Source: Azolla caroliniana
Taxonomy: Eukaryota; Plantae; Polypodiophyta
Reading direction: 5' to 3'
DNA length: 8,233 bases
NCBI GenBank assembly: GCA_043228905.1
Contig: JBHGNT010001455.1
Location: forward strand, 1-8,233
Below the pieces are notes generated by a model. That model was not told the origin of the DNA, made no database searches, and saw nothing but the letters and a program-made list of their open reading frames with translations. Within the stretch, counting starts at the first letter, position 1; each line of letters opens with the position of its first letter. The translations under genes were made by a program, and so were the position numbers. Shown here one piece after another: positions 1 through 8,233 of the stretch.

Positions 1-78
1 CGGGAGAAACTCAAACAGATGAAGATACATCTCAGTTCATATGAGCCAGGCGGGCAAAGAAAAACACTTTGTCCCATG
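1..78 (+). CDS. TWINKLE: Twinkle exon 1 in window (5'-truncated): REKLKQMKIHLSSYEPGGQRKTLCPM
   Basis: Open frame 1 with the first Zn-finger Cys; donor GTTTGT at 79, phase 0. Confidence 0.88.
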
Positions 79-3000
79 GTTTGTGCAATTACTCCCTGAC
101 ATTACATTGTTTTTGACAGTTATTTCATGCTTTTACCAATTAAGTTTCTGAGAATTGTTTCTAGTGTGGAGGGGGACAATCTGGTGAGCGGAGCCTTTCT
201 GTCCATATATCTGATGATGGGTGAGTATTGTTCCTTTGCTTACTCTAAACATTGTAATACCTATCTATTAAATGATCATATTCTGGATGTCATGTTTTAG
301 CTACTTTGCAAAATGGAACTGTTTTCGAGGAAAATGTGGCTGGAAAGGCTATACTGAGGTAAACAAGAAGAAACTCTTCTTTGTCAATATTGTAGTATGA
401 CATAACATCTTACTTATGTGTCTTTACAGACAAGGAAGGGTATGCGAGCAAGTTATGAAGAACGAAAATCTTTTGGAGAAGTAAAAAAGGGGCCCATTGA
501 AGAAGGCGTCCATCTACAAGATCTATCACCAGCGGTATGCTGTGGAAAATATGATATTAACTTGTTGACATGTGCTGATGTATCTGTTTTGGGAGCAAGG
601 AAGACTTATGTACCTGCATAGGATTGTTAGGTAGTCATTAGTTGTTTCATGTATTAATGTTGTGACTCTTATCCCAGCTCATTGCTTATATCTTTGTTCA
701 CATGCTTGTAAAGTGTGATGTGCTATTAATCCATTGCTTTCATGTTCTGACTTGTACATCGGATATCTCTCTTGGACAGTTGTTCTATGGTTACAATATA
801 AACCACTGTGCATTTATTCTATGAGGCTGTTCTTTTAGACCCAATCTTCATGATTACCAATACCAGATGATCTCGAGACAACTTGGATATTTTGCTTTCA
901 AAGGAGAGATGCTGTAATTATAGACATAATTTTCTTGTACAATTGCTTGTATTTGGAAGATTCTAGGTAGTGAGATTGCTTCCACAGCTACTCTAGTAAA
1001 TGTATGGGCATGAGCTCATTTGTACCCTGAGTCAATGAGATGCTTCTGTTGGATCACCAAGGATGAGACGAAAAAAGGCAGATTGTTGAGTATAATGGCA
1101 CAGGAGTACTCCATTGTATGTTTATGGAAGGCCCTTTAACACTATAAGTCTCTTAAGAGCTTCTAGGACATATTTGGGTCACTTGGCCAATATGAATTGG
1201 GTCAATTTCCCTAAAGTCACATTCTAATAAAACAACATTCTTTTGACCCTATAACATTTTAACTTGGGGGTTTCAAAAACCTATGCATATCTTCTCCCTC
1301 TTCTTCGCTATTTTCTCTGTATCTCAGCCATTTTCTCTCCTGTCATTCTTGTTCCAAAACCACCACTACATAAATGAATTGGTCTTGATCTCCTCTTTTC
1401 AATTGGTATCAAAGCTAAGCTATATCTCTTGCAACAGAAGTCCACAATCAAAAGAGTGTTATTGCTGATTCAATTCCCCAAGGACATGGAGGTTCTTGGA
1501 GAATTCCCATCACTTGAACAAGGAGGCTCCTTGACCACTGGCTGAAGAAATTATTGATATGAGAATTATGCTGCATGGCAATCTGATTGTTTTGGACAGT
1601 TTATATTCTGCCCCATTTCCTAACGTAAAATGATATGTAGACTTAAAATTGTTCATATGGACGTATTGAAAATAATAGTTTGCTGATATTAGAATTAATG
1701 CTGTAGCAACAAACTTATTTTCGTAACCGAGGGATAACAATAGAGACCTTGAATCGCAATGGAGTAAAACAACAACGTAAAGGTGAAAATGTAAGTGAAG
1801 CTCATTTAATTTTCCAACCATGCTTAGTGTGCTATATTTCCTTTCGTCTCATTTAATTAATGGGCACTCTAATAAATTTTACTGTTTCTTAATTGCTAGA
1901 GCATGCTTGTATTCCCTTATCGAGAAGTTGGGGAAGTTGTTGGCTTCCGAAACTATACATGCCACCTAAATTTCGAAGAGGTTGGTATCTTAATAACTTT
2001 GTGTACAGAGAGAGGCAGAGAATGGAAATGTTATATTAACATCTTTGTACCAAAGTGACATGTTAGACCAATAGTTACATCCATGTGAATCATATAGAAT
2101 TCTTGTAAGATAAAGCAAAAATGAGATTGATTATAAACTATGTAGCTTTCCTATTTAACTAGGCCATGATCAATGTACATTGATATAGGAATTGTGTGTA
2201 TAAGTAGTGGAAGTATATGATATACAAATTAAATAAATACATATCTAAGAGGTAGAATGTGAATGGACCAGTCCTTGAGTGCTTGAAATGTATTTGTGCT
2301 GTTCTACTCTGAGCATACATCGTGCCATTCCCAGAATGGTCTGATCATGCCATTTTACTACCACAGTCTGTTGAGGATTAAACGGAGCTGTTAGCTGCTT
2401 TTCAAGTGAACCACCTAGAGAATTATGCTCAATCTCTGGCCACGATACTACATCGTCTATGCAATAATCCCTGCATCCATGGGCACCTAGATAAACCATA
2501 TTAACTGCTTGGTTAAGCAATAGCTTTAGGGCTCAGGCTCACAACAACATTGGGCTAAGTGATCAATGAAATAAATGGAGGTCCTAGGGTAAGTGCTTAT
2601 GACAAGGGGCCCAAAAGCAATTTTTTCATAGAACAAAAAAAAAGTTAGATAGCCAATTAAGAGTAAATATGTGGGGCAGAAATTGGCCAAGAATGTAACA
2701 ATAAGGAAACAAAAGGATATGAAGAGAAAATCAGTTTCTGATGTGGAGATGGACAGAAATGGTAGTTGCAGGACTCTACTATAATGTACACAATGAATCA
2801 TTATGGTGTCAATGAAAGAGAAGAACACTAGGAGTGTATAAAAAGGGGGATAATTCATAGCCATATCTCGAAGCCTAAAGTAAAAAATTCCCTCATTTTG
2901 TTTTTATATTCAGTCGTGAAATGTGTTTTTCCTGAGAAAAATGTCTTATAGATATGCTTCTGTTTGCTACTCTCAGCTTGCAAATGAGCTATACGTAAAG

Positions 3001-5552
3001 TATACTTTCCGTGTTCAGCTCCATGATTAAAATGTTAGAATATGCTGTTTCCATGATTTTATATATGTAAATGTACATAATTCTTGTACTTCCATTTCTT
3101 TAGTTAGGGTTTAGGGTTTATGATTTACATTTTAAGATGTAATATATTATTTGGGCTTGTAGTCCATTTTAGCTTCTTAAAAGACACTAACATGTTTTTT
3201 TCTTTCTAGGAAGTAACTACTCGCAAAATTCTTTATGGACTTGATGATATCAAGGATGGAATTGAGATCATTATTGTAAGCGTCCTATCCCAATCATTTT
3301 AAGAAACCAGATTATGTCTTTTGAAGATCTTGTTCCAGGTTGCACGAGAAGTTGATAAGCTAGCACTAGAGGAAGCTGGATTTCTGAACTGTGTGAGTGT
3401 ACCTCATGTACCACATGGTGCACAAACAAAAGCTATTGATAAGAAATCTAAATCTGAGGTGTGTAATCTATCATTTATATTTCCTTTTGAAATTCCTTAA
3501 GTAGTTATAGCATATGACATATGTGTCTATGATATCACAGTTCTGATTTTTATTGGCTTATTTCCGTATTGTATCATAGGATAAGGATTTTGAGTACCTC
3601 TGGAACTGTCAAGAATATTTGGTGAAGGTATGTTTATTACCTTTAATAATTACCATGTATATGAAAAATGTATTTATGTGCATATGCTATTGTGCTATCT
3701 TTTGGTACAGGCTAGTAGAATTATTCTGGCAACTGGTTCAGACGATTATCTCAAAAGCCTTGCAGAGGAGCTTGCACGACGCATTGGCCGGGAGAGGTTA
3801 GTAGTGCAAATGAATCACTTTCTGCTATTGGATATGCAGACACATTTCTGTTTTGAATTTCTAGGATCTTGAGTTATTATTCTTGTGGTCAGTAAACTTT
3901 TTAGTTAATGTTTCAAAATTAGATGCTGGCGTGTAAATTGGCCACTATATAAAGCTGGGGTGCCATGCAAAGATCCTCTTGAGGTTTCATTCTGTAGATA
4001 ATCAAAAATTTTATTCCAAAGGGTGAATAGTGCCACATTCTTACATGTGCATGTTTTTGGGCTGATATACTAGGTGCTACAATTCAAGGGACGTAAAGCA
4101 TTATCTGATATGATCGAGACTTCTGAGCTATATCCAATCCGGGGCCTCTTCCAGTTTTGCGACTTTGATAAAGAAATAGATGATTACTATCATGAACGAT
4201 CAGGGAATGAGCAAGGTGTCTCAACTGGTTGGAAGTCATTGGACTCTTTGTATAAGGTAATTATATTATAGCCCGAATAGCCGTCCTCTTATTCTCTGGA
4301 AGCACAGGTTAACTAACATAATGGATGATGATTAGTCTGAAAATGCCTTTGGGTTTCAGTATTTCTTTAAAGAGCCGAAGCATTTCCGAGTACTCAATGG
4401 TTCATCAGATCTCAAAATGTTCCAACTATATTTACTCTGTCACAGCATTATTTTCTCTGAATACCCTGAATTCCTCTAAGTTGTCATCATTTCCCCGAAT
4501 ATGTCTGTTCAATTGAGAAAGAGAAAAAGGGAATAAATTTACCATGTAATTGGGTTAAATAGCATATATTATTTACAAAGAAAGAAGGAAAGATATATTA
4601 ACGTCTCTTAAGAGGCCAAAATGGCCTATAAGACCAAACAAAAGATTACATCTTTAGAGAAAAGGAGTTAGTTTCCCGTATAATTAGTCAAACAGCACAT
4701 TTAATTGCTTGAGCAAGGGATTTCCAGTTAGGTGTTATGTAATGTATAAGTATTGCTTTTGAATTTCCAAAAGAAGTAAATCAATATTTAAATCTGAAAG
4801 CAAGTTCAATCACAAGAATTTTACTCACAGTGCAATCCTCTTTATTCAGATTATTGCAACCAAGAATTGCATTTATTTAAGCATATATTAAGATTGGGGG
4901 AGAATAAAATGTCAATTGCTGTAGGTTGTTCCAGGGGAACTTACACTGATTACGGGAGTACCTAGTTCAGGGAAGAGCGAATGGATCGATGCACTTTTAT
5001 GCAATTTGAATAGGCAGAAGAATTGGTCATTTGCTTTATGCTCAATGGAGAATCAGGTATTTTAATATGCAAAACTTAGTAGAAGAAATTGGTCAGTTAC
5101 AAGCTGACAGCAGAGAGCAAGTGCACAATATTACTTATATGGCATATTGCTTATTCTAGAGTCAGTATTTCAAACACTGTATATTCTTTTTACAACACAT
5201 GAAGTTCATTTTATTTATGTTCTTCGTAAATTCTCTCGCTGAAGTTCTGTGAATCCACGCTTATTTGATCAAACTCATTGTTATATTGTTTCAATATTTC
5301 TAATCTAAGGTGAAAGAGCATGGAAGGAAGCTTCTTGAGAAATATTTGAGGAAGCCATTCTTTAATGCTATGTGGGTACTGCAGCCTAAAAGGCTGAATT
5401 TATTTCCCCATATCTTAGAATCATGTTCATAGTCATAACGTGTTTCATCTTGAAGGAATGCCTCTCAGGTACTCAAATGGCATTAAAAGGATGAGCGCAA
5501 AAGATTATGAGCTTGGAAAAGCTTGGTTGGATAAAACTTTCTATTTGATAAG
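1..5552 (+). CDS. TWINKLE: Twinkle-like organellar DNA primase-helicase (T7 gp4 family), spliced and partial at both ends. Exons: <1-78, 165-220, 301-358, 430-534, 1707-1790, 1900-1980, 3210-3275, 3339-3458, 3580-3627, 3711-3796, 3923-3983, 4074-4256, 4925-5056, 5310-5371, 5469-5552; continues beyond the window
   Basis: Manual splicing at GT..AG sites gives one open frame with consistent intron phases. Motifs: LCPMCGGG..WNCFRGKCGWKG (Zn-binding), ILYGLDDI, LEEAGFLNCVSVP, YLWNC, LAEELARRIGRERCWRVNWP, GVSTGWKSLD, VVPGELTLITGVPSSGKSEWIDA (Walker A, 4955-4978), FALCSMEN. Order and wording match plant Twinkle as recalled. Confidence 0.95.
165..220 (+). CDS. TWINKLE: Twinkle exon 2: CGGGQSGERSLSVHISDDG
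   Basis: tttctAG acceptor and GTGAGT donor; completes CxxC. Confidence 0.92.
301..358 (+). CDS. TWINKLE: Twinkle exon 3: YFAKWNCFRGKCGWKGYTE
   Basis: ttttAG acceptor and GTAAAC donor; second Cys pair of the Zn-binding domain. Confidence 0.93.
430..534 (+). CDS. TWINKLE: Twinkle exon 4: TRKGMRASYEERKSFGEVKKGPIEEGVHLQDLSPA
   Basis: ttacAG acceptor and GTATGC donor; 105 nt, phase 0/0; variable linker ending in an EE..L..L pattern. Confidence 0.82.
1071..1584 (+). mobile_element. Degenerate Ty1/copia-type LTR retrotransposon remnant: PPT-like (1071-1083), putative LTR TG..CA (1084-1401), tRNA-iMet PBS (1404-1415), gag N-terminal relic (1486-1584)
   Basis: AAAAAAGGCAGAT-TGTTG resembles the AAAAAGGGGGAGAT-TG PPT/LTR junction. 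TTTTCA-AT-TGGTATCAAAGC is an 11/12 match to the PBS TGGTATCAGAGC. The downstream frame reads MEVLGEFPSLEQGGSLTTG*RNY*YENYAAWQS, like copia gag EGGS...NY..W. Confidence 0.55.
1707..1790 (+). CDS. TWINKLE: Twinkle exon 5: QQTYFRNRGITIETLNRNGVKQQRKGEN
   Basis: ctgtAG acceptor and GTAAGT donor; YF..R.I..ETL.RN.V.Q primase motif. Confidence 0.9.
1900..1980 (+). CDS. TWINKLE: Twinkle exon 6: SMLVFPYREVGEVVGFRNYTCHLNFEE
   Basis: gctAG acceptor and GTTGGT donor; 81 nt; aligns to IAFxYxxxGxLVxCKYR..K.F.Q of homologs, but diverged. Confidence 0.82.
2311..2400 (-). mobile_element. Copia-type integrase core fragment (degenerate)
   Basis: KQLTAPFNPQQTVVVKWHDQTILGMARCML aligns without gaps to the copia motif T.PY.PQQNGVAERKNRTL.EMARSML; the catalytic E is lost. 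Confidence 0.65.
3104..3120 (+). repeat. Short plant telomere-like tract TTAGGG-TTTAGGG-TTTA
   Basis: Direct reading: ttagggtttagggttta. Confidence 0.6.
3127..3207 (+). mobile_element. LINE 3'-tail copy (highly 5'-truncated) abutting the exon 7 acceptor
   Basis: 3134-3185 matches the reverse complement of 4603-4654 at 43/52 positions without gaps (hand count). Shares ACATTTTAAGAT with 7300-7311. Confidence 0.75.
3210..3275 (+). CDS. TWINKLE: Twinkle exon 7: EVTTRKILYGLDDIKDGIEIII
   Basis: tttctAG acceptor and GTAAGC donor; YGLDDI motif. Confidence 0.93.
3339..3458 (+). CDS. TWINKLE: Twinkle exon 8 (TOPRIM start): VAREVDKLALEEAGFLNCVSVPHVPHGAQTKAIDKKSKSE
   Basis: ttccAG acceptor and GTGTGT donor; DKL..EEAGF.NCVSVP motif. 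Confidence 0.92.
3580..3627 (+). CDS. TWINKLE: Twinkle exon 9: DKDFEYLWNCQEYLVK
   Basis: catAG acceptor and GTATGT donor; YLWNC..YL motif. Confidence 0.92.
3711..3796 (+). CDS. TWINKLE: Twinkle exon 10: ASRIILATGSDDYLKSLAEELARRIGRE(R)
   Basis: tacAG acceptor and GTTAGT donor, phase 2. Confidence 0.93.
3923..3983 (+). CDS. TWINKLE: Twinkle exon 11: CWRVNWPLYKAGVPCKDPLE
   Basis: attAG acceptor and GTTTCA donor; CWRVxWP motif. Confidence 0.9.
4074..4256 (+). CDS. TWINKLE: Twinkle exon 12 (linker): VLQFKGRKALSDMIETSELYPIRGLFQFCDFDKEIDDYYHERSGNEQGVSTGWKSLDSLYK
   Basis: ctAG acceptor and GTAATT donor; YPI.GLF and G.STGW..LD motifs. Confidence 0.94.
4577..4657 (-). mobile_element. LINE 3'-tail copy, inverted, with hairpin and (CTTT)-like terminus
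   Basis: Reverse complement aagatgtaatcttttgtttggtcttataggccattttggcctct matches 7307-7350 at 40/44 positions, then continues ttaatatatctttccttctttcttt. Confidence 0.8.
4925..5056 (+). CDS. TWINKLE: Twinkle exon 13 (helicase H1/H1a): VVPGELTLITGVPSSGKSEWIDALLCNLNRQKNWSFALCSMENQ
   Basis: tgtAG acceptor and GTATTT donor; Walker A GxxxxGKS and SMEN. Confidence 0.95.
5310..5371 (+). CDS. TWINKLE: Twinkle exon 14: VKEHGRKLLEKYLRKPFFNA(M)
   Basis: ctaAG acceptor and GTGGGT donor, phase 2; RKLLEK...KPFF motif. Confidence 0.88.
5469..5552 (+). CDS. TWINKLE: Twinkle exon 15: YSNGIKRMSAKDYELGKAWLDKTFYLI(R)
   Basis: tctcAG acceptor and GTATGA donor; RMS......GK.WL..TF..IR motif. Confidence 0.92.
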
Positions 5553-6039
5553 GTATGAAACACTATCATTTGGTAATCATGTTTGACTTGCATGTCTCAG
5601 CGTGATATTGTTGAACGTTTTGCTTTACCTCTCTTCTATATTCTGTAATTTTTTTGTTTGTGTTTTGAACAAAGGTCACATCTTATATTAATTTCATTTG
5701 AAAATCTTCTCTTCTATTTTGCTATCTATCTTCTATCTTCCATAATTCCTAAACTTCTCAATAGAGAAATTATCTTCAATGTGGATAGATGAAAGTAAAT
5801 AGATACATGTAAACAATCGTCAATGGTCATAACCTGATGCACTAGGGATATCTAGCTTATTATCTTATTTAAGAAGTGGTCTTGATATTTAGAGATGAAT
5901 GTAACGAGGCCTTCTGTTCCAGCTCTTGTATATGGAACTACCGAAAATTGTAAGTGCATGTATACATATCATTCCTGTAATATGAACCTGTCATTCATGA
6001 AAGAAATCATATAAATATGCTTGAATCTAAATAATGTGC

Positions 6040-7261
6040 ACTCTTCTCTAAGCAACAGAGATTTGGGGACTGGGCTTTTATAGGGCATGTAACTGGCAGA
6101 TCTGGGGAGACCTTTAGTCTTGTCATTAAGGACCAAAGCATCAGTGCTTCATCATATATCCACCCAGAGTTACTCCAAACCCCAATATTGAGCAAGGCAT
6201 TATTCCAATCAGTGACTAGTATCCAATGTATCTGGGAGCTCCCTAAGCCAAGGTAATGGAGTTGGTACTTATGCCATAAAATTTGCTTGCTGAACATGAG
6301 ATTAATCATTTGGTTTCAGTCACATGGCATAAGTATAAACCCAGTGCTTCCATTCCACTATAGATTGGATTGTCCATACCTAAAGATGATCAAAGTGGAA
6401 AAGAATAGAGTGATTTGAACTGATGTCGTTAAATAAGATCGTGAAAGAACATGGATTAACCCCATACTATATCTTGGTATGAAGATGTTCTACTATAAGG
6501 ACTCAATTTACACATGTTGCAAGATGGATTTATAATTAGGTCTTGTATGGATACACATCTATGGCTGCTCAAGACCTCTTCATCGGGTAGACCTTGAGAT
6601 AGGCAGATAATCTATTGTAGAATGATTACACAAATTGTGCTATTGGGCAACGGGGATGGAAGGAACATTTTTCTACCATTGTGCTATTTATGAGATAAGA
6701 GGGAAATACAACTACCTCATTAAACAACTCTTTTTTGCTCCATTATACAAGGTGATATTATATGAAGACCAATGGTGATTGGGATTGTTCTTACAACCAC
6801 AACAAATCATCAATAAAGCACTATCATGACTTTTTGTAGCTCCATCACTCCCCATGCTACAAGTCAAAGAAGGGCTGCATAGGTGGGGTCTCAACCAAGA
6901 TATTCGAAAGGGATTGCAGTAGATTGGGTAGTAGAAATGTCTCATGTATGAAGGCCACAAACATCTAGACCACAATCATGTTACCCTTGTCATTGTCAAA
7001 TATGGCCATTATCACCCGGCATCAAAGGTGCTTCCCTTGGAGGTTTCTCTATACTGGACTCAAATCACGTTGGATATTCTGAAGGCTATCTAACTTTAGA
7101 ATCTTAGTTACTTATATTTTTTAGTAACCTATGTTTAATCATTCTTTCTTGGTTTTCTGTTCACAAAATCTACACAACATTTTAATATGTAATCTTTTAC
7201 TCAATCTTATAAGCCATTCTGACCTCTTCAAAGATGTTAATGTATATAAATTTTCTTTCTT
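6040..7261 (+). mobile_element. Old, 5'-truncated non-LTR retrotransposon copy A (post-RT part of the ORF, 3' UTR and tail)
   Basis: TLL*ATEIWG motif (6040-6069). Colinear with copy B from ~6200 to ~7040, e.g. 24-nt identity 6391-6414 = 7604-7627. Many stops and indels; ends in a tail at 7175-7261. Confidence 0.85.
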
Positions 7262-7386
7262 GATAAAACTAATCTTATGCTGTTCTGAAAGATGAGACAA
7301 CATTTTAAGATATAATCTCTTGTTTGGTCTTAGAGGCCATTTTTGCCTCTAAAACAATGTTAATATATCTTTCTTTCTTTCTTTCT
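7262..7386 (+). mobile_element. Second short LINE 3'-tail unit ending in (CTTT)4CT
   Basis: Diverged direct repeat of 7157-7261; microsatellite at 7369-7386; 5' boundary approximate. Confidence 0.75.
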
Positions 7387-8233
7387 CATTGTTCCGATCA
7401 GTGACATTTATCCAACGTCTTTGGGAGCTCCCTAAATGAAGGTACCCAAGGTTGGCACTTATGTCATCAAGACAACTGGCTGAAAATGGAGACACTCATT
7501 GTAGGTATGCTGAAATGCAGCAATGGTTTGAGTCACATGGCACGAGTATAAATGCACTACCCCCGTTCCAATATAGCTTGGATTGTCCCCATCTAAATAT
7601 GACCAAAGTGGAAAAGAATAGAGTGATCCGAACTGATATTATTAACTTGGAAAATAAGATAACATGGATCACTATCCAATGTGATGCGTAGTGTGATAGG
7701 GCAGCTGCGAACTTCATCACATCAACTACAGATTGAGGTAGGCAGATATACACGACTACCTCTAGAAGAGAGAATTTGCCAATTGTGTTATCAAGGAGTG
7801 GAATCTGAAGAACACTATGTTTATCATTGTAGTGTCTTTTATGAAATCCGAGGGAGATACCATTGCCTCTTTAAACAAGGCTTTGGCCCACTACGCAAGG
7901 TAATGGAATATGAGGACCAACGATGCCTAGGACTTTTCTTACTAGAGCTCAAGAGACATCAGGAAAAGTTGTTGAAGTATACAACCACACAAGCTCATCC
8001 ACAAAGAACAATCACAACTTTCTTTAGCCCCATCACTCCTACTAATTCTACAAGGCTATCAAAGGATACACAAATGGGCTCCTGATCAAGACATAACAAA
8101 GAGGTTACAATATATTGGGCAATGGCAATTTCCCGTGCACATAGGCCCCGGCCCCATGGACCACGACCTTGACACCCTTGTCATCGACAAGTAAAAGCCA
8201 TTATCTCCTGCCATCGTAGGTGTTCCCTCGCTT
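7387..8233 (+). mobile_element. Younger 5'-truncated non-LTR retrotransposon copy B: C-terminal ORF fragment with Zn-binding motif (RTE/RTEX-like, clade tentative); runs off the window
   Basis: QLRTSSHQLQIEVGRY...EERICQLC....ESEEHYVYHC..FYEIR is the typical C-terminal CxxC..H..C domain of LINE reverse transcriptase proteins. In-frame TGA at 7437, 8083 and 8170; frameshifting deletion near 7673-7680. No RT or endonuclease core in the window. Confidence 0.9.

Follow-up and report, generated by a model that had tools for sequence, protein, structure and literature searches.

The stretch of DNA analysed here (8,233 nucleotides, hereafter the window) opens within the first exon of a Twinkle gene that lies on the + strand, and the gene runs on past the window's end. 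Fifteen exons, joined by their coordinates, give 434 codons without a stop, and all 14 introns of the window have GT..AG borders, with a further donor after exon 15, so that the intact frame and splice junctions reported in an earlier note on this DNA are upheld. Exon 1 (1..78), cut by the window start, contains the start of the zinc-binding domain with a cysteine at 70-72, and its join to exon 2 is present in an RNA-like contig, X17; exon 2 (165..220) carries the second zinc cysteine (165-167), exon 3 (301..358) the whole plant CXRXKC element (W 314, N 317, C 320, R 326, K 332, C 335), and exon 4 (430..534) the variable linker downstream of the zinc finger. The RGI of motif II, equivalent to R84 of T7, is kept in exon 5 (1707..1790), while exon 6 (1900..1980) combines a degenerate basic NTP-binding stretch with retained equivalents of T7 Y111 and F130. 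Exon 7 (3210..3275) keeps the LYGLDD motif and supplies the first TOPRIM strand; exon 8 (3339..3458) holds motif IV, with Glu changed to Ala, Gly changed to Arg, and the second Glu and the Asp kept; and exon 9 (3580..3627) keeps YLWNC. Motif V, in exon 10 (3711..3796), has Gly for the first Asp of DxD, keeps the second Asp and has lost the PG, and motif VI in exon 11 (3923..3983) reads KDPLE, the Asp kept and the Asn replaced by Leu. Exon 12 (4074..4256) is the primase-helicase linker, and exons 13 (4925..5056), 14 (5310..5371) and 15 (5469..5552) encode the first part of the helicase, with Walker A (GVPSSGKS) from 4955 and the catalytic Glu of H1a at 5048-5050. The four zinc cysteines (at 70, 165, 320 and 335), Walker A and H1a are thus retained as the earlier note had said. 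Its broader claim of intact helicase motifs holds in the window for H1 and H1a, but no further Twinkle exon was found in 5553-8233, the long, repeat-filled start of intron 15, and motifs H2-H4 thus lie beyond the window; they are intact in six full-length relatives, and the next helicase exon after 5552 is seen in X20, an RNA-like contig of a related organism.

A short, very high-copy repeat occurs in the window at 3127-3207, 4558-4657 and 7174-7384, and again in L001, a metagenome contig discussed below; summed over contigs, its depth amounts to tens of thousands, where single-copy DNA has about 20. Decayed retroelement-like repeats lie in intron 15 at 6198-6456, 6792-7037 and 7387-8228, and an ORF of the same intron (7663-8085) has a weak zf-RVT match, below the cut-off (E 0.018). 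Two tandem plant telomere-type repeats, resembling a telo-box, are found at 3104-3120, inside intron 6.

The primase site is where this gene departs from other plant Twinkles. Residues are numbered here by aligning a plant Twinkle profile to T7 gp4 (E 4e-13) and counting along the 1nui chain. As the earlier note had read them, motif IV is IIIVAREVDK (A 3342-3344, R 3345-3347, E 3348-3350, D 3354-3356), motif V ATGSDDYL (G 3735-3737, D 3741-3743), motif VI KDPLE (D 3972-3974, L 3978-3980) and the basic stretch GFRNY (R 1948-1950, Y 1954-1956). The alignment to plant Twinkles and T7 gp4 that the note had proposed places Ala at E157, Arg at G158, Gly at D207, Tyr at R124 (1954), Leu at K128 (1966), Arg at K122 (1948) and Leu at the Asn of KDANE; the loss of K128 had been missed in the note's account of the basic stretch. 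Every catalytic motif is therefore altered, as had been claimed, but the loss is narrower than that wording suggests, with only two of the five catalytic acids gone (E157 and D207) and D161, D209 and D237 kept, as is the equivalent of E159. The degenerate sequences comprise eight rows, namely the window and seven clusters (Pteridium, two of Adiantum, Ceratopteris and three further), after four redundant members had been dropped, and the intact set of 114 plant Twinkles was taken from the top of similarity lists and consists mostly of angiosperms with some bryophytes and gymnosperms. E157, G158, D207, R124, K128 and the KDANE Asn are replaced in every one of the eight degenerate rows, whereas all 114 intact Twinkles have them (113 in the case of K128). 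Because the 114 are invariant at the columns concerned (E and G of motif IV, D and G of motif V, N of motif VI, K and R of the basic stretch), the window's replacements are not chance. The reading of VPDGA as VPHGA does not stand, since its counterpart is more likely to be the first VPH, which follows immediately on NCVS; an Asp is kept at this position in seven of the eight degenerate rows, which makes the change there specific to one lineage.

Both metal binding and catalysis depend critically on the TOPRIM Glu and DxD (PMC6755086), and in a model of the T7 enzyme D207, D209 and D237 hold two Mg while K122 and K128 contact the NTP (PMC12839067), the last two being termed essential elsewhere (PMC9198812). 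Set against what an active primase carries, the window has the four zinc cysteines with CXRXKC and the motif VI aspartate (D237), and it lacks the invariant EG of TOPRIM, the DxD and the basic NTP-binding residues. Pfam Toprim_4 scores 20-22 bits in four of four degenerate proteins, under the cut-off of 25, and 35-48 in four of four intact ones. With metal-binding, catalytic and NTP-contact residues replaced and the domain score below its cut-off, what these residues are known to do makes it a strong inference that this protein (copy A) would be without primase activity.

What surrounds the site has been treated quite differently. Of the positions at which 95% or more of the intact set agree, the window keeps 15/15 in the zinc finger, 18/19 in the linker and 46/48 in its helicase part, as against 11/18 in the basic subdomain and 50/65 in TOPRIM. 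The CXRXKC element, described for plant Twinkle in PMC5737085, is whole, including the equivalents of Arabidopsis R166 and K168, which are needed for template binding (PMC10557236, PMC10761990); across the degenerate rows the R is present in 8/8 and the K in 3/8. The equivalents of T7 R84, Y111 and F130, residues tied to DNA contact and loading (PMC9198812), are likewise kept in the window, R84 being lost in Adiantum and Ceratopteris, and full-length relatives carry the whole helicase. The ratio of divergence in the primase region to that in the helicase is 1.9 among degenerate rows (27/28 pairs), compared with 1.0 (6387/6441 pairs) and 1.2 (120 pairs) among intact rows, whereas the zinc-finger ratio is about equal (2.1 degenerate, 1.9 intact). 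In an AlphaFold model of the Pteridium protein, computed from an alignment of 60 rows that were mostly intact homologs, a primase-type domain is retained with good confidence, and the best structural matches of the model are human Twinkle and T7 gp4; the features retrieved from the ESM Atlas were Toprim primase clusters only.

The distribution of copy A was traced from the linker exon of the window, which matched four proteins at 82-85% identity, one of them from Pteridium aquilinum; the Pteridium protein as query added Adiantum nelumboides, A. capillus-veneris and Ceratopteris richardii. In the full-length tree the window and these ferns form one clade (100/100), with the window branching outside Pteridium and the Pteridaceae, which places its organism among the leptosporangiate ferns. 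This clade is nested among intact vascular-plant Twinkles and is sister to P0016 and P0018, both with intact primase motifs (together 100/99), whose hosts we take to be earlier-diverging ferns. As the degenerate sequences form a single clade, the tree indicates that the primase residues were lost once, before the sampled fern lineages split, and the independent loss proposed in the earlier note is borne out by all eight related fern sequences lying in one clade among intact plant Twinkles. P0018 itself has intact acidic motifs together with K128 changed to H, VPDGA to VPDIA and PG to SG, and looks like an intermediate stage beside the degenerate clade. The orthologs of Pteridium, Adiantum and Ceratopteris have Ser/Arg-rich, acid-free N-termini, a part of the protein encoded by the 5' exon that the window lacks. 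Upstream of the position of window base 1 there is also a Met that is conserved throughout clade A at the apparent start of the mature protein (about residue 98 in P0004, and present too in P0013, P0015, P0018 and P0181), and it could serve as a second start site giving a form free of the presequence.

Departures from the canonical primase motifs were also seen elsewhere in plants. A full-length gymnosperm Twinkle, P0196 of Welwitschia mirabilis, has ER for EG, KYI for KYR, no KD in motif VI and a very long branch, possibly another, independent decay of the primase half. P0213 (1419 residues) has partly degenerate motifs (ESEID and GND), a fragment from Ensete ventricosum (P0198) has HAN at the DxD position, and four proteins of Lamiales (P0127, P0017, P0128, P0129) score as if they held two primase domains, being either tandem primase-only gene models or fusions.

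Copy A is spliced and selected. Among the differences listed, X2, a DNA run that may come from the window's own source, showed none to the window within exons. X13 and X17, RNA-like contigs of two related organisms, jointly span introns 1-12 and carry the degenerate codons, X13 being identical to the window in exons 8 and 10 and X17 differing in exon 8 at two letters outside the degenerate motif; X20 and X17 span introns 13-14, so that RNA-like contigs from relatives (organisms D and F) together cover all 14 introns. The RNA status of X13 and X17 is the search tool's guess, and the contigs skip the introns exactly. Among the listed differences between X17 and the window, a count that may be incomplete, eight of ten exon changes are silent (pN/pS about 0.07; departure from neutrality, p = 1.5e-4), as are four of the five in the primase part (p = 0.01), and copy A is under purifying selection in these relatives, in keeping with the continued selection that the earlier note had supposed. 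Since the relatives' contigs span all introns and differ mostly by silent changes, the gene is neither an assembly error nor a pseudogene, the two outcomes named in that note as fatal to its reading; four fern species with the same losses and the low pN/pS contradict them as well.

A further transcript, matching the window gene only around Walker A, was present in all four runs from organisms E and F (3 studies; 80% likeness), and its loose end retrieved one metagenome contig, L001. Nine exons at L001:1909-3902 encode a helicase half that is open to its stop and has all SF4 motifs, with RKARN in place of RKVRN in the last; the primase exons lie off the contig. Intron positions and phases equal those of the window gene over four shared exons, the two proteins are 61% identical over 153 residues, and L001 has a long branch. 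The high-copy repeat of the window's introns is shared by L001 (87% over 75 bases), and L001 is on this account probably DNA of a close relative of the window organism; an exact look-up of its ORFs found one of five, as a single-member cluster. This second Twinkle, copy B, is known from organisms E and F, which are relatives, and from the one metagenome contig, and is anciently diverged. Trees in which B branched recently from A are rejected (p-AU 0.0004, 0.0008), while a position of B as sister to the whole A clade is not (p-AU 0.23, 0.25). Its nearest known relative is P0025 (bootstrap 93-94, SH-aLRT 95-97, six shared rare residues), in which the primase motifs KYR, EGE, DxD and KDANE are intact, and B would by this kinship be primase-active; in one B contig Walker A is preceded by about 1,550 nt, which could accommodate a primase half. 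That B had come horizontally from a liverwort was considered, given 74% identity to Calypogeia and a weak grouping, but is not supported, the grouping having been lost once P0025 and full-length sequences had been added. No B-type protein of a named fern was found among the matches listed (the best 120 of 2027 and the best 120 of 1362) or among the best 150 of 9119 in a profile search of 50% representatives; B would be expected at rank 114/115 against the listed matches, which makes its absence from them uninformative, though Polypodiales could conceivably lack B.

These observations suggest a division of labour. It is about an even proposition, in our judgement, that copy A, spliced, with E157, D207 and two basic residues replaced and its zinc finger and helicase motifs kept, serves as an organellar ring helicase that does not prime, and that the old copy B does the priming. 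An old duplication would have given ferns two Twinkles and freed A to lose catalysis, with B making the primers; A would have retained its zinc finger, the motor of the ring and an N-terminal half that holds DNA. Loading and holding DNA may be the reason why the dead primase half of A persists: in human Twinkle an N-terminal domain that is likewise dead binds DNA and helps synthesis to be processive (PMC9860392), and a similar role would explain the retention of the primase fold in A. The zinc finger of A may have been kept to bind template, possibly in trans for B, within a mixed ring or at the same fork. The zinc finger and RNAP domains of the Arabidopsis protein prime when supplied separately (PMC10557236), which is what would give the zinc finger of A a use beside B. 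The earlier note had left a choice between a subfunctionalised paralog and another route of priming, and the second Twinkle in close relatives favours the former.

The other route deserves consideration, and we regard it as possible but rather unlikely. Copy A might be the sole replicative helicase of one organelle, probably the mitochondrion, or in some ferns of both, with primers coming from a phage-type RNA polymerase, PrimPol or recombination, much as in animal mitochondria, and with B confined to the other organelle or lost. In Pteridium, the two Adiantum species and Ceratopteris only A-type proteins were found among the matches listed, in searches that could not have brought a B copy to light, and in relatives of the window organism B is transcribed. 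The end of motif IV in ferns (VGHELD, VGRELD, VAREVD) resembles that of vertebrate Twinkle (TGHELD in fish, TSRELD in human), human priming is delegated to POLRMT (PMC9860392), and both RpoT and PrimPol are described from plants; yet A has kept its zinc finger, unlike animals. A-type presequences are Arg-rich at their start, but their composition is not clearly different from that of dual-targeted angiosperm Twinkles. MORFFO plastid elements, as another candidate for a substitute primase, were set aside: the literature searched yielded no paper that joins MORFFO with a primase, and the one MORFFO paper checked mentions neither primase nor helicase. A job outside replication, such as strand annealing, recombination or repair, with B as the ordinary primase-helicase of both organelles, seems unlikely. 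It would suit the fixation of new residues in A across the clade (Tyr at R124 and G-S at the start of DxD, in 8/8 degenerate rows) and the annealing and strand-exchange activity described for human Twinkle, but the helicase half of A has not evolved faster than that of B (end branches of 0.06-0.19 for A and 0.46 for B), as would be expected if A had a core role.

Two further readings bear on the state of copy A itself. That it retains weak or altered primase activity is quite improbable, even with remaining acids (E159, D161, D209, D237 and the extra Asp of GSDD) present in 7-8 of the 8 degenerate rows, an intact zinc finger and a predicted Pteridium fold with a confident primase-type domain. 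Copy A has other residues in place of both ligands of the first metal and of two basic residues that contact the NTP, Ceratopteris has also lost the second Asp of DxD, vertebrate Twinkle is inactive although it, too, has the ELD of motif IV, and the Pteridium model was built from mostly intact homologs. We find it scarcely credible that the gene is a young pseudogene or an assembly error, a suspicion to which X11, an RNA-like run labelled as the window's own organism, lends something by not covering the exons, as does the position of the last helicase exons outside the window; the codons are identical in DNA run X2 and in the spliced contigs of two related organisms, the same losses recur in four named fern species, and silent differences dominate.

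Plant Twinkle has been described as bifunctional and the loss of primase activity as metazoan, and the only plant duplicate named in the passages of the same four papers is the primase-only Twinky (PMC12230644, PMC4166229, PMC5737085, PMC6843274); the Arabidopsis Twinkle gene is described as essential. No description of a primase-dead plant Twinkle was found in the literature as judged by titles, abstract openings and passages, and supplementary alignments could hold a fern sequence. The fern primase-dead Twinkle is real, conserved and apparently undescribed, and it most probably works like animal Twinkle, though with its zinc finger retained and a second copy alongside. A fern-wide primase-dead copy breaks the rule that plant Twinkle keeps both activities, and nature thereby offers a second experiment, independent of the animal one, on what keeps a dead primase half in place, one in which an intact zinc finger separates the role of the finger from that of the catalytic site. 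Ceratopteris, a transformable fern, also makes a standing question testable, namely how plant organellar DNA is primed where Twinkle does not do so. The finding is the less surprising in that loss of one half after duplication is common and that primase-dead gp4-like proteins are known in animals.

Among the known systems close to copy A is plant Twinkle, represented by the active primase-helicase of Arabidopsis (At1g30680, ATH), with which it shares domain order, the CXXC/CXRXKC zinc finger, the linker and the SF4 motifs; identity to land-plant Twinkles is 42-47% over the primase half and 62-69% over the helicase part. Unlike that enzyme, copy A is without the TOPRIM Glu, the first Asp of DxD, R124, K128, the glycine of EG, the PG and the Asn of KDANE. 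The architecture of Twinkle and T7 gp4 (zinc finger, primase-type domain, linker, SF4) is present at full length in the relatives and over the first 434 codons in the window. To T7 gp4 (1nui, 1q57, 5ikn) the likeness extends beyond the profile match (E 4e-13) to the equivalents of R84, Y111, F130, D161, D209 and D237, which are kept, whereas those of E157, D207, R124 and K128 are replaced. T7 also makes a helicase-only 56 kDa form that has no zinc finger (PMC9198812), a deletion that runs the opposite way, for in copy A the zinc finger stays. Twinky of Arabidopsis (At1g30660, primase domain only) is likewise described as a plant Twinkle duplicate that keeps one half, but it is truncated and retains the other half, while copy A is full length, altered by point losses, and common to the whole fern clade.

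A further comparison is with metazoan Twinkle (human 7t8b, Lates 8e2l), a helicase only, in which, as in copy A, the catalytic residues of the primase are lost and the fold is kept. Both drop the catalytic Glu and Gly and keep the next E and D, and their motif IV sequences converge on [GAS][HRQ]E[LVM]D, the fern variants being VGHELD, VGRELD, VGQELD, VAHEMD and VAREVD. Identity to the animal chains is about 20%, and copy A stands inside the vascular plants in a tree drawn without animal rows, so the resemblance is one of convergence and not of transfer, and a horizontal origin of A from animals was ruled out on these grounds. A tentative and bolder proposal, to which we give less than even weight, is that core leptosporangiate ferns have re-invented the animal arrangement, at least one organelle being replicated by a primase-dead Twinkle that is primed by a phage-type RNA polymerase or by a sister Twinkle borrowing the intact zinc finger of A within a mixed ring, and that their motif IV has converged on the vertebrate residues. 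What sets the fern protein apart from its metazoan counterpart is that all four zinc-binding cysteines have been kept.
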